Source of the DNA: Flectonema sp. DT1601
Taxonomy: Eukaryota
NCBI GenBank assembly: GCA_964019425.1
Contig: OZ025805.1
Span: 62,001 to 126,000 of the forward strand
Length of the DNA: 64,000 nt
Reading direction: 5' to 3'
The position numbers and the translations under genes are program-made. This document shows, piece by piece, positions 2,718-53,573 of the stretch (position 1 is the stretch's first letter; every line of letters begins with the position of its first letter). The notes under the pieces are model-generated. The model saw nothing but the letters and a program-made list of their open reading frames with translations, was not told the DNA's origin and searched no databases.

Positions 2718-5700
2718 TGATTTAAATAAGTTAATATTAAAACACCCCGACATCTCACATGACCAAACTGAGATATTAACAGTAGTACTTCAATCTAATC
2801 CGCCATTGACAATTCACAATGTTTACCACCCGCCTGAAATCAAGGCAACAACCTGGAAGTTCAAAACAGAGCCCGGCACATTGATTGCGGGTGACATTAA
2901 TGGACACCATTCAACTTGGTCAAATGGTAATACGAACACCACTGGTAACAGCTTCTACGATTGGTCACTAGAAGCAACAATTAAAATTCTAAATAAACCT
3001 CAACAACACACAAGACCACAAAGCTCAGCTTCTCCGGATGTAATTGCATTAGATATTTCAATAGATGCACAAATCGAACTCATGAAGGGATGGGGCAGCG
3101 ATCACCTGCCACTCAAACTGACAATCGAAGATATCAAAACAGATGAATATTCAAAAGAGAGTTCTGGGACATGGAAATGGAAGTGGCATTGTGCCGATTG
3201 GAATTATTATAAAATATTGTTGGAAAGGGCAGCGCCCAAATTAGAAAGAATTAAGAAGGTGCAGAAACTTGCTAATAGGATCAACAACGAGATTCTGAGA
3301 GCAGCGAGTAGGGCCATCCCAGGCTACAACAAAAAGTCAAGTAGTACCTTCGCTGTGAGGGATTCAGAATTGGAAGATTTAATGGCAGAGACTGACCCTG
3401 ATAAGACAGACTCAGAAGCAATTGAAAGAGGTATCAACATGATCAAACAGAAGATCATTGAGTGCGACATGACTGGAATGGACTACCGATGGGCCTTTAG
3501 AAAAGTTAAACAACTGGAAGGTAGAATGATGGACCATTCAATTACTAAGATTGTCGACGGTGAGAAGGAATTAACCGACTCGCGGGAGATGGCAGATGTC
3601 TTCACCAAAACATACGCAGACCAATTCAAATTCGAAGACGGTGAAACAACCTTACAAGGAATACCTGATGACAACTCGGTGGAATTTGGAATGCCTGAAC
3701 TGGAACGACAAATTTCAAAAACAAAGGAGAAGAAGGCACCTGGACCTGACCACATCTGGAACTCGATGTTAAAACAACTTCCAAAAGCTTTCCTCGAGCA
3801 ACTACTAAGACTATTCAACCTCTCATGGCAACGATCAGCAGTACCCAGGTGCTGGAAAAGTGGAATGGTAATACCCATACTGAAACCTGATAAAGACAAG
3901 AAACAAGTCCTATCGTACAGACCGATAGCACTAACCTCGACCGTCTCGAAACTCTTTGAAAGAATGGTCGTAGAACGGATGCACCACCTGTTGAAAGACA
4001 GAATGAATCCGAGGCAAGCAGCCTACAAACGAGGACGGGATTCCATTGAAAATCTCTGTATAGTTACAGACAAACTCAAAAGTGCCAAGGCAATGGGAGA
4101 AGAAGCGATATTAATCACCTTCGACCTACAAAAAGCCTTCGATGCAGTTCAACCGGTAACTCTTCTAAATAAGATGTCCAAAATAGGACTACCAACGAAA
4201 TATCTACGGTGGGTTCAAAACTACTTGACTAGTAGGAAGATTTCAACAAGGGTGAATGGAGTGAAGGGAGCATTCCGGAACATTCGAGTAGGAGTACCAC
4301 AAGGAAGCGTGCTGGGACCCCAGTTATTCTCTATCTTCATAAATGATTTGATAGATAAACTAGAGATGTACGAACCGACTGTCTTTGCAGATGATGTTGG
4401 AATAGTAATAACCGCGGGCACTGTCAGCTGTTTAGAAAACAAGGTTAACAACGCAGTCAAAATATTTGAAAGGTGGGCACTTGACTCACACATCAAAATC
4501 AATAAGAACCCTGGCAAGACGGAATACATTCACGTGAGGCCAAGTGGAACACATGACAAGTCCCCAGTAGTAGTATACTCTGAAGAACACACATTTAAAT
4601 ATGTGGTGGCCACGGCAGAACAAATGAGTAACCTTGTGAAGGATGATAACTCAACAACTGTAGCTTCAAAAGAAGAATTCGCCATCACTCACCTGTATGT
4701 CGTTCCAAAACATAAGATCAAAGTCAAGCTACCGAACAAACCGGCGGTACTGAAAACAATGAAGATGAGTGCCCGCTTCCCACAACTGAAGAAAGTCCAC
4801 AACAAGGCAGAAATAGATAAGATGCTGGAAAGAGTGGGACCCGGATTACACGGATTTGCCTATGCGGTTGGACGAAAAGTTCACAAGACGAATACCGTGC
4901 GGTATCTAGGCGTACATTATGACGAGAAGTTAACCTTTAAGTCGCAAATTCAAAAGATGATGACAGCTGCTTCCAAGGGTCTAGGCTTGTTGGTTAGACT
5001 CACCAGGATAGGCTGCAGAAAGAGGACACTCATCAGTATACTGGTGACGGTGGTGTTAGCAAGGGTGCTTTATGGTGTTGAAAGCTTTGCTTGGATGCTA
5101 CCAAAAGAGTGCTTCGAACAACTGGAATTACTGGTAAACAGGGCAGTGAGGCTGGTAACTGGATGTCTGCGGAGCACCAAACTACAGAGACTTTACAAAG
5201 AAGCCGATACGCCAAGACTAAAGGAACACATCCAGTATAAGATGTGTAGAACTTATGAACGTTTCAAATTGAGTCCGTTCCTACCGACTCGCAAGCTGAC
5301 GAGAACAGGGAGTTCAGAATTATTTCAAAAATCGAAATGGGGATGGAATGTCTGGATAGACTATGTCTCTGGTGTCCCTGGCCTTGACAACTACCGGAGC
5401 ATTACCAACCTGGAAGTGAACCCAGAACACTACACTGTCCCTCCATGGAAAAGTACTAATGCGATGAAATTCACATATTCACGCAACAAGGAAGAGGCTG
5501 AACAGCGAGAAACTGAATTACCAGCTCACGAGATGAAAGTCTACACTGACGGGTCGATAAGACACAAACCCAACACGTACATGACAGACGCGGCTGCCGC
5601 TGTGGTCATGGTTAACGAAAGCAAGATGCGTCTACTTGGATATAAAATACCAGTAGCGGGTTCCTCTTATAGGACCGAGCAGATTGCAGTGAAACTGGCG

Positions 5701-6686
5701 TTGGAAAATTTAGTTCAGGTGGCGGAGGATGAACATGAATCTCTAACAACAACGACGCACCTGTTGACTGATTCGATGTCAGTCATGCAGGCATTGGAAC
5801 AAGGGCCATATAAACAAAGGTCCCCAATGAACAAAAAGATCTGGAAGTTGGCAATGAAACTGGAGAAGAAGGGAATCCAAGTCAACATGCAGTATGTACC
5901 GGCACACAGAAACGTGCGGTACAACGAAGTAGCGGACCAACTGGCGAAATTCGCTGCAGGCCTGAAGGAAGATCCACCTCACGAAGATGTTATTATTAAA
6001 CAACTGCCCACTCAACTTGACATGGGAACATTGATGACGTTTCACAAGCGGAGAAAACGGGAGAACTGGATCGGACCGGGAGAGGTAAGACACCCTCCGT
6101 ACATCGAAGCTCTAACACGACCAGAGGAAGTACTGATGTCACGCTTTAGAGTGGGACATTGTAGATCTCTGATAATCAAAGGACTGAACGAGCTGTGCTT
6201 TTTCTGTAAACTTGGAAAGGCGACAGCACATCATGTATTATTTATATGCGAACATTGGTGTATAGAAACCTTGAGAGAAAAATACATCAGTCACATGATG
6301 AATGACAAGGGAGAGGAAGCATGCCAACTGGAGGACTGCTACTTACCTGCGAATCAACAGCAGATGACTGGTTTTGTCACAACCTTAGACAGACTGGCAC
6401 AACTATTAGGACGGTAGTATTATTAAAACATCGACATTTCGAATATCAACATTGAAGGCATCATTGCAACACATCTGAAGTCGTCCAAGTGGACAATTAA
6501 TTATGTAGTATTAGTTTTAAGTTATCAAAACAAAGAAAGGAGATACGAAGCCTACGGGATTCCCACCCCCAACCCCCAAAACAAAGAAAGTAAGAAAGAA
6601 AGAAAGAAAAAGAACAGCCGCGCCTAACAGCGCAAACAGCATCACAGACTCACGGGTCGTGGTGCACTCAAAAAAAAAAAAAAAAA
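2718..6686 (+). mobile_element. Non-LTR retrotransposon A (APE-RT-RNase H; I/Ingi-like), 5'-truncated
   Basis: 14-bp TSD GACTAACCCAGAAA at 2704-2717 and 6687-6700; A17 tail at 6670-6686; ORF starts within the APE domain. Confidence 0.93.
2806..6417 (+). CDS. Retrotransposon A polyprotein: partial APE endonuclease, RT, RNase H, C-terminal CCHC
   Basis: APE motifs IAGDINGHH, SPD, GSDHLP; RT motifs YRPIALTS, DLQKAFD, GVPQGSVLGP, FADD, YLGV; RNase H motifs VYTDGS, LTDS, VPAH..NEVADQLAK; CFFC...H...C. Frame is open from about 2719 with no ATG. Confidence 0.93.
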   Translation: MTIHNVYHPPEIKATTWKFKTEPGTLIAGDINGHHSTWSNGNTNTTGNSFYDWSLEATIKILNKPQQHTRPQSSASPDVIALDISIDAQIELMKGWGSDHLPLKLTIEDIKTDEYSKESSGTWKWKWHCADWNYYKILLERAAPKLERIKKVQKLANRINNEILRAASRAIPGYNKKSSSTFAVRDSELEDLMAETDPDKTDSEAIERGINMIKQKIIECDMTGMDYRWAFRKVKQLEGRMMDHSITKIVDGEKELTDSREMADVFTKTYADQFKFEDGETTLQGIPDDNSVEFGMPELERQISKTKEKKAPGPDHIWNSMLKQLPKAFLEQLLRLFNLSWQRSAVPRCWKSGMVIPILKPDKDKKQVLSYRPIALTSTVSKLFERMVVERMHHLLKDRMNPRQAAYKRGRDSIENLCIVTDKLKSAKAMGEEAILITFDLQKAFDAVQPVTLLNKMSKIGLPTKYLRWVQNYLTSRKISTRVNGVKGAFRNIRVGVPQGSVLGPQLFSIFINDLIDKLEMYEPTVFADDVGIVITAGTVSCLENKVNNAVKIFERWALDSHIKINKNPGKTEYIHVRPSGTHDKSPVVVYSEEHTFKYVVATAEQMSNLVKDDNSTTVASKEEFAITHLYVVPKHKIKVKLPNKPAVLKTMKMSARFPQLKKVHNKAEIDKMLERVGPGLHGFAYAVGRKVHKTNTVRYLGVHYDEKLTFKSQIQKMMTAASKGLGLLVRLTRIGCRKRTLISILVTVVLARVLYGVESFAWMLPKECFEQLELLVNRAVRLVTGCLRSTKLQRLYKEADTPRLKEHIQYKMCRTYERFKLSPFLPTRKLTRTGSSELFQKSKWGWNVWIDYVSGVPGLDNYRSITNLEVNPEHYTVPPWKSTNAMKFTYSRNKEEAEQRETELPAHEMKVYTDGSIRHKPNTYMTDAAAAVVMVNESKMRLLGYKIPVAGSSYRTEQIAVKLALENLVQVAEDEHESLTTTTHLLTDSMSVMQALEQGPYKQRSPMNKKIWKLAMKLEKKGIQVNMQYVPAHRNVRYNEVADQLAKFAAGLKEDPPHEDVIIKQLPTQLDMGTLMTFHKRRKRENWIGPGEVRHPPYIEALTRPEEVLMSRFRVGHCRSLIIKGLNELCFFCKLGKATAHHVLFICEHWCIETLREKYISHMMNDKGEEACQLEDCYLPANQQQMTGFVTTLDRLAQLLGR

Positions 6687-6759
6687 GACTAACCCAGAAA
6701 AAACATGCAAACGAGACTATATGAAAAACCCGATCAAATAAATAAATAAAAACCCGATC

Positions 6760-9700
6760 TCTCCTGAGAATTATTAACACTTCCTGGAAGACTTCAAAAG
6801 TACCGTACCAATGGAAACAGGGACTAATCAAGCCCATGTTCAAGGCAGGGAAACCTCGTAATGAACTAAAGAGTTTCAGACCAATAACGCTCACCTCGGT
6901 TGTTGGGAAACTTGCGGAGAGGCTCGTGTATGACCGACTCATGCACTGGCTCACAAAACATTCGTCGCTCAGCCCACTACAGGCTGGATTCAGAAAGGGG
7001 AGAAATACCTGCGAGCAGATCACCGTTCTAGTAGATGCTATCGTAAGGAGCCACATGGAAGAAAAGAGATCAGTGTTCTTGTCATTCGACTTTACTGCTG
7101 CGTTTGACAGGATCAACCATAAGATACTTTTATTAAAATTAGTAAAGATGGGTGTTCCGAATGTTATTATCAGATGGATCACAGACTTTCTTACAAACAG
7201 GAAGGTTAGAGTTGAAGCGAATGGGCATTTTAGCGAATTCCGTACTCTGGCTAAGGGGGTTCCCCAGGGATCGATCCTGGGTCCTCTTCTCTATCTTATC
7301 TACGTTGATGACCTCTGCAAGATTTTGGAACTAGAGAAGGAAACAACGACGTCTGCTCTGTATGCGGATGACACAGCATGTGTGGTGTCAGGATCAAACA
7401 TGGAAGAAGCTCTTTCGAATGCTCAGTTAGTACTCGACAAAGTGGATCAATGGTGTTTTGAAAACGACATGGCCTTATCAGTCTCCAAAACCTGTGCGCT
7501 TAAGATGAATGTTCGCTCGAAGGGCATAGTACTAAACGATACGTGTAATCGCGAACTGCTTTTCTCTAGATCTGTTGAGGAACGCATGCTTAAACTTGAC
7601 TATGGTGACATCGAGAAGCATATCAATCTCAAATCACCCAGACCCATGCTTCAAAGTGGCGAAACTATTCTTGAAATTGGAGGAATCCCAATCAAGACAC
7701 AAGAAGAACTCGACAACTTGATGCTGCAATACGTCGTTCGTGAGGACAGCATTATGGTTGTGAGAGCAATATTCAAAACTGCCTTTCTGTTACCGATAGT
7801 CGACTCAGTAAAATACCTCGGGGTTCACATCGACGACAGGCTCACCTTCCACAAACAAGTAGGCAAGATTCACGAAGAATTAAAGAGGGGGATATCACTT
7901 CTGCAGTGCCTCCAGCCGTACGAACTGGACTACAAGACTCTTAACATGGTTAAGAACCTTTATGTAACCGCGAGAATCTCGTATGCGCTTGACAGTTTTG
8001 GTTGGCTGATAAGCAGCAGCGTTGACAGCATCGACTTCGAACTGAGGAAGGTCGCCAGACTGGTTACTGGATGCAGCAAGTGTACGCCAAGAGAGTTACT
8101 GTTGTGGGAGTCTGACATGTATCCTTTTAAACGTCAGATTGAAAAGCAGACAAAAATTGCGTACTACCGGTATAAAGCCATGACTTGGATACCTAATACA
8201 AACAGACTCGCCTCAACACAAAGCTACTGGGCTGGCCTAATCCCTGGCACTGATAGTCAGCGTGAAAGCCAGTGCCTTGTGCAGCCTGACTCGATGGAAC
8301 CCTGGGTATCTCCGACGAACCTTAGGATTAGCAACAGCTGCGGATTTCCGAAGTCCGCGAACCCTGCGGTGGACAAAGAAAAGTTCATGTCGTACATTGG
8401 AACGTTGCCTCCTGTCGACATGGTAATCAACTGCGATGGCTCCTACTCTGCTTCCGGCGCGGCCGGTGCGGCTCATATTGCCAAGTCACGTAGCGGCCTT
8501 CGATCTGCTTACGCGTCTAGGCTTTATCAAGCTGACTGCAGCTACAGGGCTGAACAACATGCTCTGAAGAACGCGGCTAGACATCTGAGAACAGTGTTTA
8601 GCAAAGATCGTTCAATGAAATCTGTGAGGATATTCACGGACTCAAAATCCCTTCTGGATGAACTGCTGGGTGGAAGGTGCAGACAGAGGAATACCGAGTC
8701 CCTCAAGATACTGGAATACCTGCGCATGTGTGAGATGAAAGTGCATTTGCAATTCATCCCCTCGCACATTGGAATCGAGTTTCACGATGAAGTTGACGCG
8801 CTTGCAAAGGAAGCAGCGCACAACAAGAACATCCGACCTGTGCTAGTCAAAGGCACGTACTTCTCGCGATCATCACATGTGAAGCGCTGCATCAAAAAGG
8901 ATCTGCTTAACGTGAGTGGTTACACCTGCTACAAACACCTCATCAGAGGCCGTTCAGTTAAATACCCTCCTGGGATGGAAAGAGCCGACGAGATACGGAT
9001 AGCGAACTTCCGGACAGGATGTCACCCGCTAATTCAGAACTGGCGCAAGACGATCGACTGCCCATTTTGTGGCGAACCGTCCTCACAGGTTCACCTGCTG
9101 CAGGGATGTCAATCTCCCAAACTCGACTCTGCCAGGTTCAAAATCCTGGGCTTCTCAACACTGACCGGCAAGTGGGATCGCGATCGAGAACTTATTATTG
9201 CCAACGAAATTCCTAACCTTGAAGCTCTCTTCACTTTGGCGTGGCTTCCATCACTCGCGTTGATCATAAGGTGGATGGAACAAACATCTAACCTTAGACT
9301 TTGGAAGTAAAGTAGGTGACATGTAGTCGCCAATATCAATTTGTTATTATTTTTAGTATTTTCATCATTATCAATCATCTCCTGGTTGGGTAACTGCACA
9401 TCACCTTCGGTGTTGTCGCAGTGTCTCATCCAACACTCCTGTCTCCTTTTTCTCCTATTCTCCTTATAAATTTCTCTTGAGGGCAGGCCTTCGGGCTGTT
9501 CAAGTGGTCTTTGACCACCGCTCTAGTTATATGCTCGACTCTTTGTTTTCCTTATCGATGGTAGGAATGGTAACCGAATTAGCTTCGTGTGTCCAATTTC
9601 AAGGACGCGTGACCATTTATTTTTTCCGTTGCCGCTCTTCTTACGTCCTCAGGCGGAGCCTACCTATGTTTCCCGTGTTTTCCAATTTGTCAGACTTAAG

Positions 9701-9800
9701 TCAAAAAGAAAGTATAAAAGAAAGACAAAACATAGAAGTGAAAAGAACAAAAAACAAAGAGTTTGGTAGCACAGACGAGTGTAACCAAAAAAAAAAAAAA
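6760..9800 (+). mobile_element. Non-LTR retrotransposon B (RT-RNase H; I/Ingi-like), 5'-truncated
   Basis: TSD AAAAACCCGATC at 6748-6759 and 9796-9807 (overlaps poly(A) 9787-9800). Coding frame begins at 6761 (LLRIINTSW...); ~475-nt 3' UTR. Confidence 0.92.
6761..9310 (+). CDS. Retrotransposon B RT-RNase H-CCHC ORF (N-terminally truncated)
   Basis: FRPITLTS, DFTAAFD, GVPQGSILGP, YADD, KYLGV; RNase H motifs NCDGS, FTDSKS, IPSHIG..DEVDALAK; CPFC...H...C. Confidence 0.92.
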   Translation, partial: LLRIINTSWKTSKVPYQWKQGLIKPMFKAGKPRNELKSFRPITLTSVVGKLAERLVYDRLMHWLTKHSSLSPLQAGFRKGRNTCEQITVLVDAIVRSHMEEKRSVFLSFDFTAAFDRINHKILLLKLVKMGVPNVIIRWITDFLTNRKVRVEANGHFSEFRTLAKGVPQGSILGPLLYLIYVDDLCKILELEKETTTSALYADDTACVVSGSNMEEALSNAQLVLDKVDQWCFENDMALSVSKTCALKMNVRSKGIVLNDTCNRELLFSRSVEERMLKLDYGDIEKHINLKSPRPMLQSGETILEIGGIPIKTQEELDNLMLQYVVREDSIMVVRAIFKTAFLLPIVDSVKYLGVHIDDRLTFHKQVGKIHEELKRGISLLQCLQPYELDYKTLNMVKNLYVTARISYALDSFGWLISSSVDSIDFELRKVARLVTGCSKCTPRELLLWESDMYPFKRQIEKQTKIAYYRYKAMTWIPNTNRLASTQSYWAGLIPGTDSQRESQCLVQPDSMEPWVSPTNLRISNSCGFPKSANPAVDKEKFMSYIGTLPPVDMVINCDGSYSASGAAGAAHIAKSRSGLRSAYASRLYQADCSYRAEQHALKNAARHLRTVFSKDRSMKSVRIFTDSKSLLDELLGGRCRQRNTESLKILEYLRMCEMKVHLQFIPSHIGIEFHDEVDALAKEAAHNKNIRPVLVKGTYFSRSSHVKRCIKKDLLNVSGYTCYKHLIRGRSVKYPPGMERADEIRIANFRTGCHPLIQNWRKTIDCPFCGEPSSQVHLLQGCQSPKLDSARFKILGFSTLTGKWDRDRELIIANEIPNLEALFTLAWLPSLALIIRWMEQTSNLRLWK

Positions 9801-9816
9801 CCCGATCCGGCCAGGC

Positions 9817-9888
9817 GGCGGCTTAGCTCAGTGGTAGAGCATTGGTCTTGTAAACCAAGGGTCGAGAGTTCGATCCTCTCAGTCGCCT
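9817..9888 (+). tRNA. trnT-UGU: tRNA-Thr(UGU)
   Basis: Cloverleaf: acceptor GGCGGCT/AGTCGCC, D arm GCTC/GAGC, anticodon arm TTGGT-CT-TGT-AA-ACCAA, T arm GAGAG-TTCGATC-CTCTC. Confidence 0.97.
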
Positions 9889-10623: not shown

Positions 10624-11334
10624 CTATGCCTGAACCAGACGGTATGTCGCATACTCTCCTGCAGTGTCTGAAGGACGGACAATTTTAACAACGTTACCAG
10701 ATGTCAATCCGAAGTGTCTGGCGAGGGGATCAGCGTGTTGGATACGAGGAAGCTGACTTTGATCAATCTTGAGAGCGAGGAGAAGGTTACGCTTCTCACG
10801 ATCAGACAGGGGAGTATGTTTTGGAACAAGCTCGTGTTTACTGACGTTGATAAGAAGCTCAGACTCAAGGAAATGCTCAAAAATCTTACCCGCATCGTTT
10901 GCTGCAGCGATAGCTTGTTTGCACTGAGCTGTTGGAAGTGATGGAGAGACGATGATTGCTCGTGAGCATCCACGAACTTCCTTTTCCAACATGTCATAGT
11001 AATCTTTAATATTCTTCCCTGTCAGCTTAGCTGTTGATACAAAGAACACCATAATCGATCTGTTCTTACTCTTTTCTAATCTGTCAGCTTCAGTATCATC
11101 GAGTAACTCTTCCTCATCCTTCTCAGCGTACAGTTGTAAATTCTCTTTCTTTGCCCAGACTTGATCATCACTTGTAACATTAAAGAACCTATTCTTAAAG
11201 TCATCCACACCTTCTACTTTCTGCGACTCCGTTACAATGTGACCTCTATCTTCAAGCATCTCAATGCAAGTTTGTCTCACACGGTACAGCTTAACCAATT
11301 CATCGTATGTGCAAGTCGGTGGAGCGTCAGCCAT
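10624..11334 (-). CDS. RPB5: RNA polymerase I/II/III shared subunit RPB5
   Basis: LYRVRQTCIEMLEDRG N-terminus; ELLINVSKHELVPKH, QLPRIQHADPLARHFG, VVKIVRPSDTAGEYATYRLV. Confidence 0.97.
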   Translation of the reverse strand: MADAPPTCTYDELVKLYRVRQTCIEMLEDRGHIVTESQKVEGVDDFKNRFFNVTSDDQVWAKKENLQLYAEKDEEELLDDTEADRLEKSKNRSIMVFFVSTAKLTGKNIKDYYDMLEKEVRGCSRAIIVSPSLPTAQCKQAIAAANDAGKIFEHFLESELLINVSKHELVPKHTPLSDREKRNLLLALKIDQSQLPRIQHADPLARHFGLTSGNVVKIVRPSDTAGEYATYRLVQA

Positions 11335-11696
11335 TTGTTTTTATGATCTTATTTCTACCTGCGGAGAAAACATGCAAATACTCGGCACATTATTTAAGGA
11401 TCTCACCAACCATACTTTTTATTATTATTTTTATCAGAAAAAAGCCTTTGGCCGGAGCACACAGGGAAAAAACAAAAAACAAAACAATTATAATAAAATA
11501 AAAAAACGAATCTTTAATTTTTGAATGATTTCTAAAAAAAAAATTGAAAATTACTAACACAGAATCGATGGAAGGATACGATGTGTAAATAATGTGTAAA
11601 TAAATTGAATCTCTTAAGGTAGCCAAATGCCTCCTTGCAAGAATGAACCAATGAGATGCCTTCTGTCTTAATGAACAAGACAAGAAAAAGTTAACA

Positions 11697-36655: not shown

Positions 36656-36791
36656 TATTTTTTTTTTTTTTTTTTTTTTCTGGTTACACTCCTGGGTGCA
36701 ACCATCTTCTTTGTTCATTGTTGTTTTCACTTCAATGTTTGCCTTTCTTTTTCACTTTCTTCTGGTAAAAGTCTGACAAGAACCAAGGGAA
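36656..36791 (-). mobile_element. Short 5'-truncated retrocopy related to the 3' end of retrotransposon B
   Basis: Absent from units 2-4. Ends GAGTGTAACCAG + poly(A); aligns by eye with 9687-9800. Confidence 0.85.
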
Positions 36792-37502
36792 CAACATCCG
36801 GAGGATCGGTATTCTTTTCCCCTTTTTTTTTCATATAATCATGTACCGCCATTAATATAAGCGTGCATAAAGAGAGAGGAGGGATCGAACAAACAATAAC
36901 AACGGGAGTCATATTTCCTGTACGCCACCGCTCCCTTGGTGGTGATGGTGGTGATGGTGGTGATGCTGTAATGTCAGGCACCCCAACAAATGAAAGGCCT
37001 AGAAATATCGTGGGAATTACCTTACTTAGATCGGCAGTGAACTCGTCAGATTTCATGGTATTCCCTTCAAGTTGAATTCTCCATCCTAATGGTGACTCAA
37101 GAACATATCCAGTGTGAGAGTTGATTGCTGTTCCTTCACAAGTGAAACACTTTCCAATTTTCCATGTTGAACCATTATTTAGTGCTCTGCATATTTCTAA
37201 GCACTTGGGAAGAGATACGAAGTCCTTTGAGAGCTCGTTCACAATAATTGAAAGTTTAGACTTCACATCTTCCAAAGGGATGTGCGATACGTAAACAGAT
37301 AACAATACAGTTCGAGGTGTTTGTATACTCGCTAGGGGTTCTCCATCTGTCGGTGTTTGGTAGTTAACAAAATTATATTTTTTTAAAATAAAAAAAAAAT
37401 ATATATACCAAAGGGAGTATCTTTATGCATTTCCGCTTCTTCATTTAGACCCAACCCCACCGACAATATCGCAAACAGGACTACTGCATGTGTGTAGATC
37501 AT
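36727..37502 (-). CDS. Array gene copy 1: type-I membrane protein, C-terminus replaced by a retro-insertion
   Basis: Exon 1 from ATG 37502 (MIYTHAVVLFAILSVGLG signal peptide), intron 37408-37347, TM VVIVCSIPPLSLCTLILMAV; extra SPP repeats. Confidence 0.7.
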
Positions 37503-39049
37503 TACTGACTGAAATGAGAATGAATAATTTGAAACTGACTATAATGCTGTCGAATAGGAGGGTTTAACTGTTCGAGTTTGTACGTAAAATACAAATGTAT
37601 TGTATCATAAACAACATAACGATAATTTAACATTAGTTCTGAGAGACAGTTGACTAAAGGTAATGTTAGTCTAATTTATTAAATCACATATGTGCTGTTG
37701 AATAGGGTGGGGTGGGTTATGGAGGTTTAAATTGACAATAATTACTGACTACATAACAAGATGCTTTTCCGGTATACCAAAAAAAAATCTAAAATTGTAC
37801 AAAAAAAAAAAAAAGAATTGGCTTTAACTTCAACTATACAGAAAATAATGATATAACACTGTGATTTTTTGTTTGCACGAAACCGGATAATTGAGCCTTT
37901 TTGATTTTGTTCAGTAATTCCTGAGGGGGGTGAAGTATAATGGGAGGGTTAAAGAACCACTTGCAATGGGGGCTTGGCGCTGTTAGTCAGAAAATCAGAA
38001 AACGTTTTTTGCTATTTCGAAGTCGCCTCAGTAATACTCCGCGTTATTGATCCCTGACATATTGTTGTGGTATTTGATGCTTGGTAAGTAGGAGGGTTAG
38101 GTTTTTTTTTTTTTTTTTTTTTTTACATATTCAAAAAACTTTCATTCCTTTTTGAGAAGAGAGGGAAAAAGAAGAAACCATTCAGATCAACCTTATATTT
38201 CGTTGAACGCAGACAAAAATCCTGTCGCACGGGAATATATATCATGATGACCATAAGAAATACCGGTTCTCAATCTGAATAGTTTAGTTATTTTAGTTAG
38301 CAAAATACAAACTGATGACTACGAGGGGTCTGGGTAGCCCGCATCAGTAAGGACCCAATCGCGAAAATTGTAGTTTCATAGTATTGGCTGGAAGTGATCG
38401 ACTTCCAGCCTCCACCTTGCCCAGAGGCTAACAGGTTGTAAACAACTAAAGAAAATAAAAGAGAAATTTTCTGGGGTGAAGGTGAAAAAAAAAATAAAAA
38501 ATCTTCTTTCTTTCATATAAAAATAATAATAATGAAATAAACAGTTCGAATGCTGCGTGATCTCTGTAGCCAATCGTGTCGTATCGTCACTTAAAGTGAG
38601 TACCGACAAACTAAAGAAGAAAAGCTTTATAAAAACTGATAAAAAACCAATATTTTTTTTTTCCCCTTCTTCTTTGGAGGAAACAAACGGGAAAGGGAAA
38701 AGTGGGGCGGTAAATTTGTCCTTTAATTATCAAGTTGGGAGAAAGAAAAACAATTTCAATTTCTGAAAGCAGCCGCCATCAATACAATTCCCACCCTGAA
38801 AAGGAGTGAGGCAATACCGCCGTAAGAAAGGCCAAAGAAAGATATTCTTTGACCGTAGTTGAAGTGGGAGAACAAAAAAAAAAAAATAATAATTCGGCAA
38901 AAAACTTCACTTTTTACTTTCGTACTAACGCTTTTATTTTGTTTGCGCAACCACAGGTACAAAAATCCTAATAAAGAAATAGGTTAGTTACGCTGTACAA
39001 CAAAAAAAAAAATAAAAAAAATAGAGGAGGCCGAGTACTACATGTCTAA

Positions 39050-39840
39050 TCAATTACTGCTTACTGATGAATCAGAGAAAACATAAACATCAGGCTGACT
39101 TTCACTTCGAGGTTTAGCCCACTTGTCAGGTGCGTTATCGTCATCGTCAAGATCAACATCCGGAGGATCGGTATTCTTTTCCCCTTTTTTTTTCATATAC
39201 TTATGTACCGCCATTAATATAAGCCCGCATAAACTGAGACCAGGGATCGAACAAACAATAACAACGGGAGTCATATTTCCTGTAGGCCACTCCCTTGGTG
39301 ATGCTGTAATGTCAGGTACCCCACCAAATGAAAGGCCTAGAAATATCGTGGGAATTACCTTACTTAGATCGGCAGTGAACTCGTCAGATTTCATGGTATT
39401 CCCTTCAAGTTGAATTCTCCATCCTAATAGTGACTCAAGAACATATCCAGTGTGAGAGTTGATTGTTGTTCCTTCACAAGTGAAACAGTTTCCAAATTTC
39501 CATGTTGAACCATTATTTAGTGCTCTGCATATTTCTAAGCACTTGGGAAGAGATACGAAGTCCTTTGAGAGCTCGTTCACAATAATTGAAAGTTTAGACT
39601 TCACATCTTCCAAAGGGATGTGCAATACGTAAACAGATAACAATACAGTTCGAGGTGTTTGTATACTCGCTGGGGGTTCTCCATCTGTCGGTGTTTGGTA
39701 GTTAACAAAATTATATTTTTTTAAAATAAAAAAAAAATATATATACCAAAGGGAGTATCTTTATGCATTTCCGCTTCTTCATTTAGACCCAACCCCACCG
39801 ACAATATCGCAAACAGGACTACTGCATGTGTGTAGATCAT
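39050..39840 (-). CDS. Array gene copy 2: signal peptide + single-TM protein, unknown function
   Basis: Same two-exon structure; acidic cytoplasmic tail (DVDLDDDDNAPD). Confidence 0.75.
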
Positions 39841-41387
39841 TACTGACTGAAATGAGAATGAATAATTTGAAACTGACTATAATGCTGTCGAATAGGAGGG
39901 TTTAACTGTTCGAGTTTGTACGTAAAATACAAATGTATTGTATCATAAACAACATAACGATAATTTAACATTAGTTCTGAGAGACAGTTGACTAAAGGTA
40001 ATGTTAGTCTAATTTATTAAATCACATATGTGCTGTTGAATAGGGTGGGGTGGGTTATGGAGGTTTAAATTGACAATAATTACTGACTACATAACAAGAT
40101 GCTTTTCCGGTATACCAAAAAAAAATCTAAAATTGTACAAAAAAAAAAAAAAGAATTGGCTTTAACTTCAACTATACAGAAAATAATGATATAACACTGT
40201 GATTTTTTGTTTGCACGAAACCGGATAATTGAGCCTTTTTGATTTTGTTCAGTAATTCCTGAGGGGGGTGAAGTATAATGGGAGGGTTAAAGAACCACTT
40301 GCAATGGGGGCTTGGCGCTGTTAGTCAGAAAATCAGAAAACGTTTTTTGCTATTTCGAAGTCGCCTCAGTAATACTCCGCGTTATTGATCCCTGACATAT
40401 TGTTGTGGTATTTGATGCTTGGTAAGTAGGAGGGTTAGGTTTTTTTTTTTTTTTTTTTTTTTACATATTCAAAAAACTTTCATTCCTTTTTGAGAAGAGA
40501 GGGAAAAAGAAGAAACCATTCAGATCAACCTTATATTTCGTTGAACGCAGACAAAAATCCTGTCGCACGGGAATATATATCATGATGACCATAAGAAATA
40601 CCGGTTCTCAATCTGAATAGTTTAGTTATTTTAGTTAGCAAAATACAAACTGATGACTACGAGGGGTCTGGGTAGCCCGCATCAGTAAGGACCCAATCGC
40701 GAAAATTGTAGTTTCATAGTATTGGCTGGAAGTGATCGACTTCCAGCCTCCACCTTGCCCAGAGGCTAACAGGTTGTAAACAACTAAAGAAAATAAAAGA
40801 GAAATTTTCTGGGGTGAAGGTGAAAAAAAAAATAAAAAATCTTCTTTCTTTCATATAAAAATAATAATAATGAAATAAACAGTTCGAATGCTGCGTGATC
40901 TCTGTAGCCAATCGTGTCGTATCGTCACTTAAAGTGAGTACCGACAAACTAAAGAAGAAAAGCTTTATAAAAACTGATAAAAAACCAATATTTTTTTTTT
41001 CCCCTTCTTCTTTGGAGGAAACAAACGGGAAAGGGAAAAGTGGGGCGGTAAATTTGTCCTTTAATTATCAAGTTGGGAGAAAGAAAAACAATTTCAATTT
41101 CTGAAAGCAGCCGCCATCAATACAATTCCCACCCTGAAAAGGAGTGAGGCAATACCGCCGTAAGAAAGGCCAAAGAAAGATATTCTTTGACCGTAGTTGA
41201 AGTGGGAGAACAAAAAAAAAAAAATAATAATTCGGCAAAAAACTTCACTTTTTACTTTCGTACTAACGCTTTTATTTTGTTTGCGCAACCACAGGTACAA
41301 AAATCCTAATAAAGAAATAGGTTAGTTACGCTGTACAACAAAAAAAAAAATAAAAAAAATAGAGGAGGCCGAGTACTACATGTCTAA

Positions 41388-42178
41388 TCAATTACTGCTT
41401 ACTGATGAATCAGAGAAAACATAAACATCAGGCTGACTTTCACTTCGAGGTTTAGCCCACTTGTCAGGTGCGTTATCGTCATCGTCAAGATCAACATCCG
41501 GAGGATCGGTATTCTTTTCCCCTTTTTTTTTCATATACTTATGTACCGCCATTAATATAAGCCCGCATAAACTGAGACCAGGGATCGAACAAACAATAAC
41601 AACGGGAGTCATATTTCCTGTAGGCCACTCCCTTGGTGATGCTGTAATGTCAGGTACCCCACCAAATGAAAGGCCTAGAAATATCGTGGGAATTACCTTA
41701 CTTAGATCGGCAGTGAACTCGTCAGATTTCATGGTATTCCCTTCAAGTTGAATTCTCCATCCTAATAGTGACTCAAGAACATATCCAGTGTGAGAGTTGA
41801 TTGTTGTTCCTTCACAAGTGAAACAGTTTCCAAATTTCCATGTTGAACCATTATTTAGTGCTCTGCATATTTCTAAGCACTTGGGAAGAGATACGAAGTC
41901 CTTTGAGAGCTCGTTCACAATAATTGAAAGTTTAGACTTCACATCTTCCAAAGGGATGTGCAATACGTAAACAGATAACAATACAGTTCGAGGTGTTTGT
42001 ATACTCGCTGGGGGTTCTCCATCTGTCGGTGTTTGGTAGTTAACAAAATTATATTTTTTTAAAATAAAAAAAAAATATATATACCAAAGGGAGTATCTTT
42101 ATGCATTTCCGCTTCTTCATTTAGACCCAACCCCACCGACAATATCGCAAACAGGACTACTGCATGTGTGTAGATCAT
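41388..42178 (-). CDS. Array gene copy 3
   Basis: Protein identical to copy 2 in the ORF track. Confidence 0.75.
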
Positions 42179-43725
42179 TACTGACTGAAATGAGAATGAA
42201 TAATTTGAAACTGACTATAATGCTGTCGAATAGGAGGGTTTAACTGTTCGAGTTTGTACGTAAAATACAAATGTATTGTATCATAAACAACATAACGATA
42301 ATTTAACATTAGTTCTGAGAGACAGTTGACTAAAGGTAATGTTAGTCTAATTTATTAAATCACATATGTGCTGTTGAATAGGGTGGGGTGGGTTATGGAG
42401 GTTTAAATTGACAATAATTACTGACTACATAACAAGATGCTTTTCCGGTATACCAAAAAAAAATCTAAAATTGTACAAAAAAAAAAAAAAGAATTGGCTT
42501 TAACTTCAACTATACAGAAAATAATGATATAACACTGTGATTTTTTGTTTGCACGAAACCGGATAATTGAGCCTTTTTGATTTTGTTCAGTAATTCCTGA
42601 GGGGGGTGAAGTATAATGGGAGGGTTAAAGAACCACTTGCAATGGGGGCTTGGCGCTGTTAGTCAGAAAATCAGAAAACGTTTTTTGCTATTTCGAAGTC
42701 GCCTCAGTAATACTCCGCGTTATTGATCCCTGACATATTGTTGTGGTATTTGATGCTTGGTAAGTAGGAGGGTTAGGTTTTTTTTTTTTTTTTTTTTTTT
42801 ACATATTCAAAAAACTTTCATTCCTTTTTGAGAAGAGAGGGAAAAAGAAGAAACCATTCAGATCAACCTTATATTTCGTTGAACGCAGACAAAAATCCTG
42901 TCGCACGGGAATATATATCATGATGACCATAAGAAATACCGGTTCTCAATCTGAATAGTTTAGTTATTTTAGTTAGCAAAATACAAACTGATGACTACGA
43001 GGGGTCTGGGTAGCCCGCATCAGTAAGGACCCAATCGCGAAAATTGTAGTTTCATAGTATTGGCTGGAAGTGATCGACTTCCAGCCTCCACCTTGCCCAG
43101 AGGCTAACAGGTTGTAAACAACTAAAGAAAATAAAAGAGAAATTTTCTGGGGTGAAGGTGAAAAAAAAAATAAAAAATCTTCTTTCTTTCATATAAAAAT
43201 AATAATAATGAAATAAACAGTTCGAATGCTGCGTGATCTCTGTAGCCAATCGTGTCGTATCGTCACTTAAAGTGAGTACCGACAAACTAAAGAAGAAAAG
43301 CTTTATAAAAACTGATAAAAAACCAATATTTTTTTTTTCCCCTTCTTCTTTGGAGGAAACAAACGGGAAAGGGAAAAGTGGGGCGGTAAATTTGTCCTTT
43401 AATTATCAAGTTGGGAGAAAGAAAAACAATTTCAATTTCTGAAAGCAGCCGCCATCAATACAATTCCCACCCTGAAAAGGAGTGAGGCAATACCGCCGTA
43501 AGAAAGGCCAAAGAAAGATATTCTTTGACCGTAGTTGAAGTGGGAGAACAAAAAAAAAAAAATAATAATTCGGCAAAAAACTTCACTTTTTACTTTCGTA
43601 CTAACGCTTTTATTTTGTTTGCGCAACCACAGGTACAAAAATCCTAATAAAGAAATAGGTTAGTTACGCTGTACAACAAAAAAAAAAATAAAAAAAATAG
43701 AGGAGGCCGAGTACTACATGTCTAA

Positions 43726-44518
43726 TCAATTACTGCTTACTGATGAATCAGAGAAAACATAAACATCAGGCTGACTTTCACTTCGAGGTTTAGCCCACTT
43801 GTCAGGTGCGTTATCGTCATCGTCAAGATCAACATCCGGAGGATCGGTATTCTTTTCCCCTTTTTTTTTCATATACTTATGTACCGCCATTAATATAAGC
43901 CCGCATAAACTGAGACCAGGGATCGAACAAACAATAACAACGGGAGTCATATTTCCTGTAGGCCACTCCCTTGGTGATGCTGTAATGTCAGGTACCCCAC
44001 CAAATGAAAGGCCTAGAAATATCGTGGGAATTACCTTACTTAGATCGGCAGTGAACTCGTCAGATTTCATGGTATTCCCTTCAAGTTGAATTCTCCATCC
44101 TAATAGTGACTCAAGAACATATCCAGTGTGAGAGTTGATTGCTGTTCTTTCACAAGTGAAACAGTTTCCAATTTTCCATGTTGAACCATTATTTAGTGCT
44201 CTGCATATTTCTAAGCACTTGGGAAGAGATACGAAGTCCTTTGAGAGCTCGTTCACAATAATTGAAAGTTTAGACTTCACATCTTTCAAAGGGATGTGCA
44301 ATACGTAAACAGATAACAATACAGTTCGAGGTGTTTGTATACTCGCTGGGGGTTCTCCATCTGTCGGTGTTTGGTAGTTAACAAAATTATATTTTTTTAA
44401 AATAAAAAAAAAATATATATATACCAAAGGGAGTATCTTTATGCATTTCCGCTTCTTCATTTAGACCCAACCCCACCGACAATATCGCAAACAGGACTAC
44501 TGCATGTGTGTAGATCAT
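43726..44518 (-). CDS. Array gene copy 4
   Basis: A few substitutions versus copies 2-3 and a 2-nt longer intron. Confidence 0.75.
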
Positions 44519-48893: not shown

Positions 48894-49591
48894 AAAAAAA
48901 TTAACCAGTGTTTAGGGTTTTGAATCCCATGGATCCCGTCGCTCAGGCGGTCCGGTGGAGAACCGGGTAGGGCACTGTGAACGAGTTGCGGTCCAGGTGG
49001 CGTCGGAAGGCCACCGCACCAACAGATTTGTTTCTTCGCACAACAGTAGCTTGGAGACCGTAAGAGACCCAAGGTGGTTCACAACCGCTCGAACAACTGC
49101 GTGTGAAGGAACAAGATTGAAAAGAAAAGAATATAAGAAAAGAAATGCCACACACAAAAAACGACGTAGTAAAGCAGAGAGGTAGGGGGAGGGATGGCCT
49201 CTTTCTCCACACATTGCATGGGAGCTCCCCGAGTAACTCAAGGGGCTGATACTGTTAATACATTTCAGGCGACCTGAACTTATAATCCCCCCATGCGTGA
49301 AAAGACTAAACGGGGGAAGTTTGAAGGAAATGGGGGTAAAGGGAAATCATGCCACTAAGGAAAAAATAAAAACCCGGTGGCCCCTGTGAGCTCTGGGTGC
49401 CTGAGTATCCCGGGCCGGATCACCTGACCTTCTGCTATGTTGTCCTTTTTTTTTAAAGGTTAGGCTACCGGAAAATAAAACGGGGGTAAAAGAATACACA
49501 GCAACAACAACAATACGTCAGCACTCTAGTTACACACAAGGTGCATCCAGGTAACACCACGAGGAGGCGCGCTATCCGAGTTTCGTTACCC
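48894..49591 (-). mobile_element. Non-autonomous ~698-bp retroposon X, copy 2
   Basis: About 99% identical to 52879-53573. Flanked by TGACTGTTCACAAATTACTA (49592-49611) and a 2-mismatch copy (48874-48893); 3' T-tract. Confidence 0.9.
49520..49591 (-). ncRNA. HDV-like self-cleaving ribozyme (5' end of X copy 2)
   Basis: Manual fold identical to 53502-53573. Confidence 0.8.
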
Positions 49592-49911
49592 TAGTAATTT
49601 GTGAACAGTCAGACAAGAAATCATCACCAATAGTGGTGATACTACTAAGACTTGAATGGTCAAGAGAAGTGATTTGTTCATAGAAATATAAAAAGAAATT
49701 CTCAATAGTGGTGACACTACTAAGACCTGAAAGGTCAAGAATAGTAATTTGTAAACAGTTAGACAAGAAACCATCACCAATAGTGGTGACACTACTAAGA
49801 CATGAAAGGTCAAGAATTGTAATTTTTGAACAGTAAGACAAGAAATAATTCCCAATAGTTGTGACACTACTAAGACCTGAAAGGTCAAGAATAGTAATTT
49901 GTAAACAGTTA

Positions 49912-52708
49912 TATGTACCATTTTGAGTGCTGTCATTCAGGCTTGCTAGCACGGTGAGATGACGAGGCACTGGTTCGGCCAACCTAAGTTAACCCCTTGT
50001 CCTGTGGTTCCCTTTCCGGGGTTTCCTCTGCTTTCGGTTTCATTTGTTTGGTGAAACCTAATTTTAGAAGCGATGTGCTGGTTTGCATATCATGCTTCGT
50101 CGGCTGCTTCGCCCTCCTCGTCAACGTCCTTATAATTGGCCCGTGATGCTTTTTGTTGCAGCATTTCGTGGCAGTCCGTTGTTCCGGATCCGGATTCCGC
50201 TTGCAGTCGTTGCAGGGAGCCATCTCGTGGTGACGGCATCGGTGGTGGCTGTTTCTGCAACATTGCTCAGATCCTCTGCCGATCACTATGCAGACTGCAC
50301 ATGGAGTAAGCTTGTGCTTGCTGCAAAAGTCCCATATCGGTATTTGTCCATCTTCATCCCCCAGAGTGTGATGGTTGTGGCAGCACTGGTAGATGGTGTT
50401 TCCGGCCCGTCGACAACTATTGCATTTCTTCTTGAAGTGTCCGTAGCACGTCGAGTTCATCGTTCCTTGTCCCTCCGCGATGCCCGGTCTCTTGACGACC
50501 TCGGGTGGCGGGCGTGTCGGTCCTCGCTCGCAGAGCTCCCTCCTCAGCTGTACGTCTTTTTCCTTTGATGGGAAAAGTCGTGCCGCGGTTATCCATTTCT
50601 CCGCTCTCCCTTCCCTCTCGCTCGAGTGCCTGCACTCAGTCTCGAAGCCGAATCTGATTTTGTCAGCTTTTCCGTCGTTCGCCTCCTGGACCGTCCTCCG
50701 AATTGTGTCTACTGTTTCGTCTCCCATCAGAAAAGCTGGTCGTTTCTTCAAACCTTTCAGTACCGGGGCTCCTAGTGGACGTAAGGCTTTGTTGCTTCCT
50801 ACGCAGTAGTCGGGAAAGGTTCTTTGTTCCTCGCCTTCTAAATGCTTGTGAACCAAGTTCAATCTTAGCATCAGTCCACACATGACGTCAGCTTTTTTCC
50901 CGGCGGCTCTGTCTTTGGTGCACTTCGCTACGTGGCCTTCGTGGACTGTGGTCGGTATGTCAACCCCCGCATACGCTTCGAAGTCGATCGCTAATTCCAG
51001 GAAGGTGACTCCGACTCCGTCTGGCTGTCGAGGCCACTTCAGTTCCCTCAGGTAGCTCGCAAGCGCTAAGTACAAGGTCAATCCAAGGGCTTCGGGCCAT
51101 TGGGTGTATACTGGCATGTACTTTTCCAGTTTGTTGTTGTATCTCATAACTACTTCCGGTTCCTTGTTCCCAGCGTATTCCACAACCATCAGCCGTCTCT
51201 CCTCCAGTTGTTGGTAGTCGTCCCTGCGGAGCCTGATCCGTGCGAACATTCGTTGTAGGTCTCCAGTGAGCCCCGCCGGCAGTTCCACATTGTCGGGCTT
51301 GATGCCGAGTAGCCTCAGGCAATTGGGCCAATCGCATCGAACTTGTAGCATCACTTGCGGGTATTCCTGTCGGATTGTGTCATAAGCTCTGCAATCCCAG
51401 TTCACGTGCTCGAGGGTCTCCGTCCTCTCTACGTCGTCAACCTCCTCGCAGTGCGCGCAGTTCTTGTTTCCCGCCTTCATCGAGCCAGTGTACACGTTGT
51501 CCAGGAGGCAGTGCTTCACTACTCCGCGCAGGTAGGGGTCGCCCTTTCCTTCCTTCAGGACCTTCAGGGTCTCTTTCCGGTCGATGCCCGCTTCAATACC
51601 TCTCAGGTTTACCCGTCTCGTTTCCGCAATTGTTTTGTTCCAGGTGAAACGCCTGCACGCCTCTCTGACATCGTGCCGCCAGCGCCCCGCATCCAGCCGT
51701 CCGTGTTCGGTCGTCCCTCCCGGACCTTCGAAGACCGAGAAAGTTGACCATTCCCATCCAAGTTCCTTCAGAGTACTCAGGGCGAGGCCGACTGGTCCTC
51801 TCGTCGCTTCAGTGTGCTCTTGCAGGTGTTCCCATACCCTGCGTATCCTCTCAGTTAGCTTCGGTAGCATTCTGGTGAGTGCAAGGAGTCTGTTGTACCT
51901 AATGTACGTCGCGGGATCCACACAATGTCCCTTGCAGAGTAGCGTTAGGCCCATGGTGTGCGACATCTTAGTTCTTTTCCCTCCAAGTTTGCGGAAAATC
52001 CCCGTTGCCCTTGCTCTTCTCAGCAGTCCGAGTCGCGTCGCATCGGGATCGTACAGTGCCGTTCCGAAGAGCGCCTTGGGCATGACACTAGCTGCAGCTA
52101 TCTGTTCCTTCGCTTGATATCTGAGCGGAAGTAACCGGATTCGCCTCGCTCTATCGAGCACTTCTTCTGTGATCCTCCCCATCTGCTTGGTGGTTCCTTT
52201 CATACTGAGGTGGCATCCCACGATATCGACACTGTCATCGAAGTCCAGTGTTGTGTCCCCCATTGTGATGTTGGTCTGGCCCTGGTCTCTGTTCGAGAAC
52301 CACTTGCACTTCTGAGGCGCGAGTTCTTGTCCGGTCAGGGTGCAGAACTCCGCAACGACTTCTACGCCTTCTTGTAGCTTCGTTCGTGATCCAAACAACG
52401 TCAGGTCGTCCGCATACGATCCGGGCGTCACATCGGCTTCCTTCTCGATTGCTTTGCTGAGTATCGAGCTCAGCGCATTGAAGAGCACCACGCTGAGCGG
52501 GCATCCTTGCAGTATTCCGTTGGTGGTGGCAAATTCTTCTCCGACGCCACTCGGGAACTTGAATCTCCTTCTGAGTCGCCGGTAGACATCCGTCACAGTT
52601 CTCAGGATCTTATCACCGAGGCCCAATTCCTTCACTAATTTCAGGAGGATGTCGTGCGGAATCAGGTCGAAACACTTCCTGAAGTCCGTGGTCACTCCTG
52701 CAATCTCT
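49912..52708 (-). mobile_element. 5'-truncated non-LTR retrotransposon C inserted at the LRR target motif
   Basis: GC-rich block. 5' flank TGACTGTTCACAAATTACTA (52709-52728), 3' flank TAACTGTTTACAAATTACTA (49892-49911); short structured 3' UTR with no poly(A). Confidence 0.88.
49984..52707 (-). CDS. Retrotransposon C ORF: RT, CCHC knuckle, 'FLELAIDF' region, triple Cys/His repeat
   Basis: TDFRKCFDLIPH, NGILQGCPLS, SYADD, IVGCHL; CAHC..ETLEHVNWDC; C-terminal CxxH-x4-CxxC..CC..HH x3. Confidence 0.9.
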   Translation of the reverse strand, partial: EIAGVTTDFRKCFDLIPHDILLKLVKELGLGDKILRTVTDVYRRLRRRFKFPSGVGEEFATTNGILQGCPLSVVLFNALSSILSKAIEKEADVTPGSYADDLTLFGSRTKLQEGVEVVAEFCTLTGQELAPQKCKWFSNRDQGQTNITMGDTTLDFDDSVDIVGCHLSMKGTTKQMGRITEEVLDRARRIRLLPLRYQAKEQIAAASVMPKALFGTALYDPDATRLGLLRRARATGIFRKLGGKRTKMSHTMGLTLLCKGHCVDPATYIRYNRLLALTRMLPKLTERIRRVWEHLQEHTEATRGPVGLALSTLKELGWEWSTFSVFEGPGGTTEHGRLDAGRWRHDVREACRRFTWNKTIAETRRVNLRGIEAGIDRKETLKVLKEGKGDPYLRGVVKHCLLDNVYTGSMKAGNKNCAHCEEVDDVERTETLEHVNWDCRAYDTIRQEYPQVMLQVRCDWPNCLRLLGIKPDNVELPAGLTGDLQRMFARIRLRRDDYQQLEERRLMVVEYAGNKEPEVVMRYNNKLEKYMPVYTQWPEALGLTLYLALASYLRELKWPRQPDGVGVTFLELAIDFEAYAGVDIPTTVHEGHVAKCTKDRAAGKKADVMCGLMLRLNLVHKHLEGEEQRTFPDYCVGSNKALRPLGAPVLKGLKKRPAFLMGDETVDTIRRTVQEANDGKADKIRFGFETECRHSSEREGRAEKWITAARLFPSKEKDVQLRRELCERGPTRPPPEVVKRPGIAEGQGTMNSTCYGHFKKKCNSCRRAGNTIYQCCHNHHTLGDEDGQIPIWDFCSKHKLTPCAVCIVIGRGSEQCCRNSHHRCRHHEMAPCNDCKRNPDPEQRTATKCCNKKHHGPIIRTLTRRAKQPTKHDMQTSTSLLKLGFTKQMKPKAEETPEREPQDKGLT

Positions 52709-52878: not shown

Positions 52879-53573
52879 AAATTAACCAGTGTTTAGGGTT
52901 TTGAATCCCATGGATCCCGTCGCTCAGGCGGTCCGATGGAGAACCGGGTAGGGCACTGTGAACGAGTTGCGGTCCAGGTGGCGTCGGAAGGCCACCGCAC
53001 CAACAGATTTGTTTCTTCGCACAACAGTAGCTTGGAGACCGTAAGAGACCCAAGGTGGTTCACAACCGCTCGAACAACCGCGTGTGAAGGAACAAGATTG
53101 AAAAGAAAAGAATATAAGAAAAGAAATGCCACACACAAAAAACGACGTAGTAAAGCAGAGAGGTAGGGGGAGGGATGGCCTCTTTCTCCACACATTGCAT
53201 GGGAGCTCCCCGAGTAACTCGCGGGGCTGATACTGTTAATACATTTCAGGCGACCTGAACTTATAATCCCCCCATGCGTGAAAAGACTAAACGGGGGAAG
53301 TTTGAAGGAAATGGGGGTAAAGGGAAATCATGCCACTAAGGAAAAAATAAAAACCCGGTGGCCCCTGTGAGCTCTGGGTGCCTGAGTATCCCGGGCCGGA
53401 TCACCTGACCTTCTGCTATGTTGTCCTTTTTTTTTTAAAGGTTAGGCTACCGGAAAATAAAACGGGGGTAAAAGAATACACAGCAACAACAACAATACGT
53501 CAGCACTCTAGTTACACACAAGGTGCATCCAGGTAACACCACGAGGAGGCGCGCTATCCGAGTTTCGTTACCC
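52879..53573 (-). mobile_element. Non-autonomous 695-bp retroposon X, copy 1
   Basis: Perfect 20-bp TSD TGACTGTTCACAAATTACTA (plus-strand 53574-53593 and 52859-52878); no credible ORF. Confidence 0.92.
53502..53573 (-). ncRNA. HDV-like self-cleaving ribozyme (5' end of X copy 1)
   Basis: P1 GGGUAAC/GUUACCU (G1-U wobble), P2 AGCGC/GUGCU, P3 GCC/GGU, L3 UCCUCGU, P1.1 CC/GG, P4 AUGCAC/GUGUGU, J4/2 AAC-UAGA containing the putative catalytic C. Confidence 0.82.

Follow-up and report, generated by a model that had tools for sequence, protein, structure and literature searches.

Does the RT of a LINE-type retrotransposon carry a captured protein domain in its palm, and what might such a domain do there? 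This question is raised by element B, one of two related retrotransposons in the window, i.e. the 64,000 nt of Flectonema sp. DT1601 DNA analysed here. An earlier note, made from the sequence alone, had pointed to about 103 aa between the SKT and KYLGV motifs of its RT and had read them as a PDZ-like domain that could tether the RNP of the element to a host factor. The gap is indeed long, its measured length being 106 aa instead of 103 (SKT at 7484–7492, KYLGV at 7811–7825), and the quoted PDZ pattern was located at 7649–7726, with IMVVR at 7751–7765. The features discussed below are collected in Table 1.

Table 1. Features of the window (positions are those of the 64,000-nt stretch)
Feature	Position	Strand	Remarks
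Retrotransposon A	2718..6686	+	5'-truncated relative of B, about 27% identical; 14-nt duplication at 2704 and 6687
126-aa interval of element A	4522..4899	+	same RT site as in B; not recognisably PDZ
Target-site duplication of B, 5' copy	6748..6759	+	12 nt
Retrotransposon B	6760..9795	+	5'-truncated copy: RT, RNase H, CCHC finger, 3' UTR, poly A
Whole SKT-to-KYLGV interval of B	7493..7810	+	106 aa; insert plus ordinary linker strands
Inserted trimmed PDZ-like domain	7565..7783	+	73 aa, at the hairpin tip between RT motifs 6 and 7; limits from alignment, AlphaFold model, fold searches and profile matches
Best-conserved PDZ half	7649..7765	+	L..GE motif, strand D, strand E, helix B, closing strand
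Target-site duplication of B, 3' copy	9796..9807	+	ends 9 nt before the tRNA gene
tRNA-Thr(TGT)	9817..9888	+	sole tRNA gene of the window
Host ORF with PDZ-like C-terminal segment	15348..16193	-	no Pfam PDZ match
Host ORF with PDZ-like C-terminal segment	44841..46019	-	PDZ_6 match at E=0.0023, which misses the curated cut-off

Element B is a 5'-truncated Ingi-like LINE, an assignment that refers to its Ingi-type layout, the tree described below being one without trypanosome ingi and L1Tc. RT, RNase H and CCHC finger are encoded in the stop-to-stop frame 6746–9310(+). A full-length member of the family, P0019, has 1289 aa, with a 2A-like peptide at the N-terminus and an APE domain. The domain scan found APE and RT in P0019 and RNase H in P0001, and all three together in one long ORF in P0097, P0083, P0098, P0100, P0102 and P0103. 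The N-terminal 2A-like peptide was seen in three of the 17 scanned proteins, P0019 among them, many of the proteins beginning further downstream. According to the available text of PMC3708506, 2A peptides are known from five other clades besides Ingi. With the Ingi/L1Tc clade, as described in the available parts of PMC3708506 and PMC5814959, the family shares the single long ORF with N-terminal 2A-like peptide, APE, RT and RNase H, the poly A and the target-site duplication. It differs in ending in a CCHC finger, where L1Tc has two C2H2 fingers, and in the RT insert, the latter in a comparison covering sequences other than those of trypanosome ingi and L1Tc. Logan contigs from four of six listed runs match parts of the 3' half of B only, ending at the poly A and leaving the insert uncovered; the listed runs included none of RNA.

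How much of the long interval is additional sequence can be judged from other RTs. The YADD-to-xLG distance, measured in 115 of 124 RT proteins, is 150 aa in B, 134–173 aa in 15 proteins of the comparison and 138 aa in the further insert-bearing P0006, compared with a median of 75 aa in 99 insert-less RTs (range 46–96, the value of 46 probably being a mis-hit). Likewise, the SKT-to-KYLGV interval of B exceeds that of 99 other LINE RTs by about 75 aa. In the alignment of 13 insert-bearing lineages the insert proper has 64–73 aa and follows a conserved strand with L.F, while a closing strand with L.P.V comes after it; both strands match the linker of ordinary RTs, and the remaining interval is such a linker. 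With respect to human L1 ORF2p, the insert lies immediately before the KYLG motif. The sequence RLGF in P0005 to P0007 was considered as a PDZ carboxylate loop and dismissed, since every lineage has L.F in this column, which corresponds to the linker strand of RTs lacking the insert.

Searched alone, the insert of B gives no Pfam match at E up to 10 and, in the PDB, a single non-PDZ match (E=1.8); the PDZ signal needs the relatives. A Pfam scan of six inserts had PDZ_6 as its best match (E=0.0014) and none for B, and in the full proteins the scores of 11.8–12.5 bits, set against a cut-off of 27, missed the gathering threshold. A profile of six insert sequences, run against 1.84 billion proteins, returned 18 matches at E up to 0.001: seven element pieces and 11 multi-PDZ proteins, the latter being the only non-element matches. 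Against the PDB the insert profile gave 23 matches at E up to 10, of which 19, including all of the top 13, are PDZ-bearing; the best E of 4e-4 is a whole-protein value, and such values sum over repeats in PDZ matches, the per-domain E in the PDB being at least 2.4. For RseP, HtrA/DegP, LIMK2 and S41 proteins among these matches the PDZ content is in part presumed. With a core profile of 13 sequences, individual PDZ domains reached at most 22 bits; its reverse scored none, and hhalign of the insert with 25 PDZ domains gave 96.7%. The core-profile and hhalign tests are partly circular, because the PDZ set was chosen by the insert profile.

What the insert shares with PDZ domains (Pfam PDZ, PDZ_2 and PDZ_6; RseP, HtrA/DegP, LIMK2, NHERF1 and syntenin PDZ2) is the L..G[DE].I..I.G..V....L motif, strands D and E, helix B and the closing strand; the core of this motif, L..GD.I..I[NDG]G..V, is present with GE or GP in place of GD. 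Furthermore, a strand and a GPGA/GAAA segment in the distant P0100 group align with the PDZ helix A region (30%). As to a possible donor, the 22-PDZ protein P0094 reaches per-domain scores of at most 7.7 bits, and neither of the two PDZ-like host ORFs of the window matches the insert profile. That host genes of the window carry PDZ-like domains themselves was upheld, weakly, for one of these two ORFs and not for the other (Table 1).

The predicted fold points in the same direction. An AlphaFold model of the insert, calculated from element sequences only, reached pLDDT 86 and pTM 0.72, whereas a single-sequence model of the interval was unusable (pLDDT 39). In Foldseek, 42 of the 44 PDB matches listed for the model carry PDZ in their title; the best had E 0.08 and probability 0.93, TM was at most 0.48, and no match reached E 0.001. 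With VIA, run against 48,161 chains, 45 of the 50 matches listed are named PDZ, with 62–81 residues aligned and a best Z of 6.3, which falls short of the tool's mark of 8 for a clear match and lies in the range of common arrangements. We take the remaining two Foldseek and five VIA matches to be PDZ proteins as well. The check by AlphaFold and Foldseek that had been proposed for the insert thus yielded a domain predicted to be folded and PDZ proteins throughout, at modest scores. The model consists of a long first strand (13–20), a helix (21–26), two short bridges, strands D and E, helix B and a long closing strand. In VIA it aligns end to end with PDZ chains of canonical order, for example model residues 8–84 with residues 192–273 of syntenin, and the predicted fold aligns with syntenin PDZ2 over 64 of 82 residues (rmsd 2.7). 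A viral fold library gave nothing at E up to 0.001, its first rank being a PDZ protein with E=0.83, and the ESM Atlas had no usable match for the insert of B and only matches under 0.9 for that of A.

One could argue that a short strand-strand-helix motif resembles PDZ by chance. The empty Pfam search with the insert of B alone, its one non-PDZ match in the PDB and a Z value within the range of common arrangements would be in keeping with this. However, profile and predicted fold independently indicate one family, the reversed control remained blank and the segment of the P0100 group falls on the PDZ helix A region, and we consider a chance resemblance extremely unlikely. With the profile and the predicted fold both leading to one family, the PDZ origin assumed in the earlier note is very likely. 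The insert is a real variant of an Ingi-like LINE, structurally supported at the level of a predicted model; its function is what we infer below.

Canonical PDZ domains possess a carboxylate-binding loop of the GLGF type and a full hairpin of strands B and C. Measured against these, the domain in the RT is trimmed. From the first strand to the G[DE] motif it has 18–22 residues, compared with 33–44 in 17 canonical-order domains of P0094, which leaves about 18 residues missing, and a GLGF-type (phi-G-phi) motif is absent in 12 of the 13 lineages. Together with the small size of the insert, the GE or GP and the scores below the Pfam cut-offs, these are its differences from ordinary PDZ domains, and a canonical PDZ module, as originally envisaged, is not what was found. 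Spacing and predicted secondary structure suggest that the carboxylate loop is gone, together with much of the B–C hairpin, and that the canonical groove has probably been lost. The missing residues and the lack of a GLGF-type motif make ordinary binding of C-terminal peptides unlikely, as far as the sequence tells. If the groove is lost, any binding would have to use another surface.

First searches with the region had found five relatives with 38–79% identity, and later searches added more. The 13 insert-bearing lineages fall into 12 clusters at 90% identity and come, by their source labels, from nine ENA records and four complete Flectonema neradi transcripts, which points to a diplonemid, one of a group of marine flagellates, as the likely host of the window. 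Among 125 listed cluster members, all 70 copies that span the interval possess the insert, which bears out the expectation that it is common to other copies of the family. It is absent from two Diplonema ambulator elements. A tree was calculated from the RT sequence minus the insert, with 15 insert-bearing sequences and 28 hand-picked from the 99 insert-less ones. In this tree the 15 form one clade (bootstrap 98, SH-aLRT 95), the D. ambulator elements appear as its sister (99/97), and the type of element A is nested weakly within it (87/78). One clade of insert-bearing lineages in an insert-free tree fits one capture. We therefore suggest that a single PDZ domain was probably captured at the base of this clade and later remodelled or replaced in the A-type families. 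Outside this set, a JGI metagenome scan with P0001 gave no match; a second one gave 80 distant LINE loci, none of which matched the insert profile and of which the 21 measurable ones have linkers of at most 77; and the search of viral contigs found none.

In element A, the interval at the same RT site looks different. Compared with the insert of B, hhalign gave 0.2–0.6%, and compared with the PDZ set 3.4%, over helix B only. With net charges of +9 and +10 the A-type insert is basic; its conservation between two families is 77%, vs 81% for the RT core. A weak similarity to ribosomal protein L10 (E about 0.9) extends over about 30 residues of the interval in A.

Within the B-type domain the conserved columns belong to the hydrophobic core and to turns, none of them being basic, and the interval has net charges between -8 and +5. 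In all five full-length pairs the insert is the least conserved region, for instance with 70% identity vs 95% for the RT core; in two further pairs only a truncated APE region is less conserved. P0019 and P0003, two subfamilies of one 90% cluster, are 97–99% identical in RNase H and C-terminus, 86% in APE and 70% in the insert, a pattern for which a mosaic or local fast evolution is possible.

These observations would suit a tolerated passenger, that is, a PDZ fragment fused once into a permissive surface hairpin, binding nothing and kept since its folding preserves the RT: conservation is confined to core residues with no conserved surface residue, no other region diverges as fast, elements of the canonical groove are missing, A-type families have a different sequence at the site, and the sister elements of D. 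ambulator do without. However, the insert was lost in none of the lineages. The 13 lineages, with RT identities down to about 31%, and all 70 listed spanning copies have kept 64–73 aa, yet the insert-less relatives show that a short turn is enough. We regard a mere passenger as somewhat unlikely.

A known elaboration of the same interval gives a hint to what the domain might do. In R2 elements an insertion called 6a, between RT motifs 6 and 7, contacts the target DNA 22–34 bp upstream of the nick; without it nicking is blocked, and the available parts of the two sources describe it as unique to R2 among non-LTR RTs (PMC10499050, PMC11601368). As far as these parts go, R2Bm, R2Tg and R2Pm share the site of the insertion with element B. 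R2 is of the RLE type and its 6a insertion is a short, base-reading loop, whereas the APE-type element B has a whole predicted domain that lacks conserved basic residues. By analogy with the 6a loop the PDZ-derived domain would face the upstream target DNA, and it could itself touch this DNA or the element RNA. The shared interval and the basic, well conserved insert of the A-type families would agree with such a direct contact, but the net charge of the B-type interval and the lack of any conserved basic column in the domain do not, which makes it very unlikely in our view.

In PDZ domains the two ends of the chain are adjacent. This suits the capping of the RT hairpin between motifs 6 and 7, and the predicted domain could sit there with the palm left unbroken. 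The explanation that we prefer is that the captured and trimmed PDZ domain serves as a docking module for a host protein: a fast-changing, non-canonical surface would dock this protein on the DNA that immediately precedes the insertion site, and the domain would have a role in choosing insertion sites or in gaining access to them. Such a protein-binding role, kept by selection, may well exist, and we see the chances for and against it as evenly balanced; the fast divergence and the lack of conserved surface residues would agree with a passenger to the same degree. The sharp local divergence, with 70% identity between subfamilies that are 94–99% identical in RT and downstream, could also mark a conflict module: a quickly evolving surface with no part in site choice, whose task would be to decoy a silencing or restriction factor of the host, to protect the RT against it, or to pair molecules of the ORF protein. 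Yet relaxed constraint yields the identical pattern and, to our knowledge, no such host factor has been described; we consider this most improbable.

Which host protein could be docked by such a module? Element B is inserted 9 nt upstream of the tRNA-Thr(TGT) gene, a single site that was noticed after the fact; the rough chance for one insertion to fall within 21 nt, with 26,108 bases free of long ORFs and elements, is 0.0008. Closely upstream insertion, here seen at one site, is known for TRE5-A, Dp_NLTR-A, DGLT-A, Ty3 and Ty1. As far as the available parts of PMC5911963 and PMC5006619 go, Dp_NLTR-A is an APE-RT-RNase H element inserting upstream of tRNA genes, the distance being 2–6 bp for NLTR-A and 13–33 bp for DGLT-A. 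In the known tRNA-targeting elements the targeting part is, according to the same available text, the ORF1p, which in TRE5-A binds TFIIIB, or the integrase. Furthermore, TRE5 is oriented opposite to the tRNA gene, whereas B lies on the same strand.

From this one insertion and the R2 analogy, Pol III machinery as docking partner, as the earlier note had proposed, appears unlikely, though conceivable. If it were so, the inferred first nick of B, about 21 nt before the tRNA, and a reach of ~27 bp as in R2 6a would place the domain about 48 nt upstream of the tRNA, and family-specific surfaces could set different distances. It is equally doubtful that the diplonemid Ingi-like clade as a whole targets Pol III genes, with a PDZ-derived module of the RT palm docking TFIIIB or Pol III upstream of tRNA genes. 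The listed copies of ten families lie on 85 distinct contigs, a figure that is silent on targeting as long as tRNA positions are missing from it.

Reconstruction of the empty site puts element A 68 nt upstream. Over 1234 aa A is identical to a full-length copy, and B differs from the nearest other listed copies, of which the comparison covered 15 per cluster, at 6–7 of 849 positions; A is therefore perhaps the younger of the two, and hence may not have been inserted beside the tRNA gene. A third occurrence of the 12-nt target motif of B, at 6724, precedes the 5' copy by 24 nt, the two being separated by a run of AAAT (6724–6759). This third motif may have been left behind by a tiny insertion that came earlier, which would suggest a reused site.

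A PDZ insert in a LINE RT was not found in our literature search, which extended to sources other than subscription journals and Repbase. The main text of PMC3597677, on the capture of host genes by transposable elements, has no occurrence of PDZ in its available part, and the D. papillatum genome paper (PMC10161547) mentions LINE ORFs, without classification in the part available. LINE RT palms are conserved in length, here with a median of 75 aa in 99 relatives, and R2 6a is the one elaboration described and thought unique to R2. A captured PDZ-derived domain kept across 13 lineages means that a whole module facing the target DNA can be accommodated at this site, and may be put to use. If a host factor is docked there, the domain would offer a direct test of site choice by APE-type LINEs without ORF1p, would illustrate from nature a position at which LINE-type RTs tolerate an added domain, and would be a rare case of a PDZ fold repurposed minus its peptide groove. 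Pol III docking, if true, would be a third route to tRNA genes, after ORF1p and integrase.

Some neighbours in the window may be mentioned. The gene at 10624–11340(-), about 730 nt downstream of the tRNA gene, presumably codes for an RPB5-like RNA polymerase subunit. An unrelated 5'-truncated RT element with a Cys/His-rich tail (49984–52707(-)) lies within a region of 75-bp tandem repeats, and a stretch near 49000–49600 is repeated near 52970–53600. Finally, four near-identical host ORFs are arranged in tandem at 36727–44460(-), with a spacing of about 2.3 kb.
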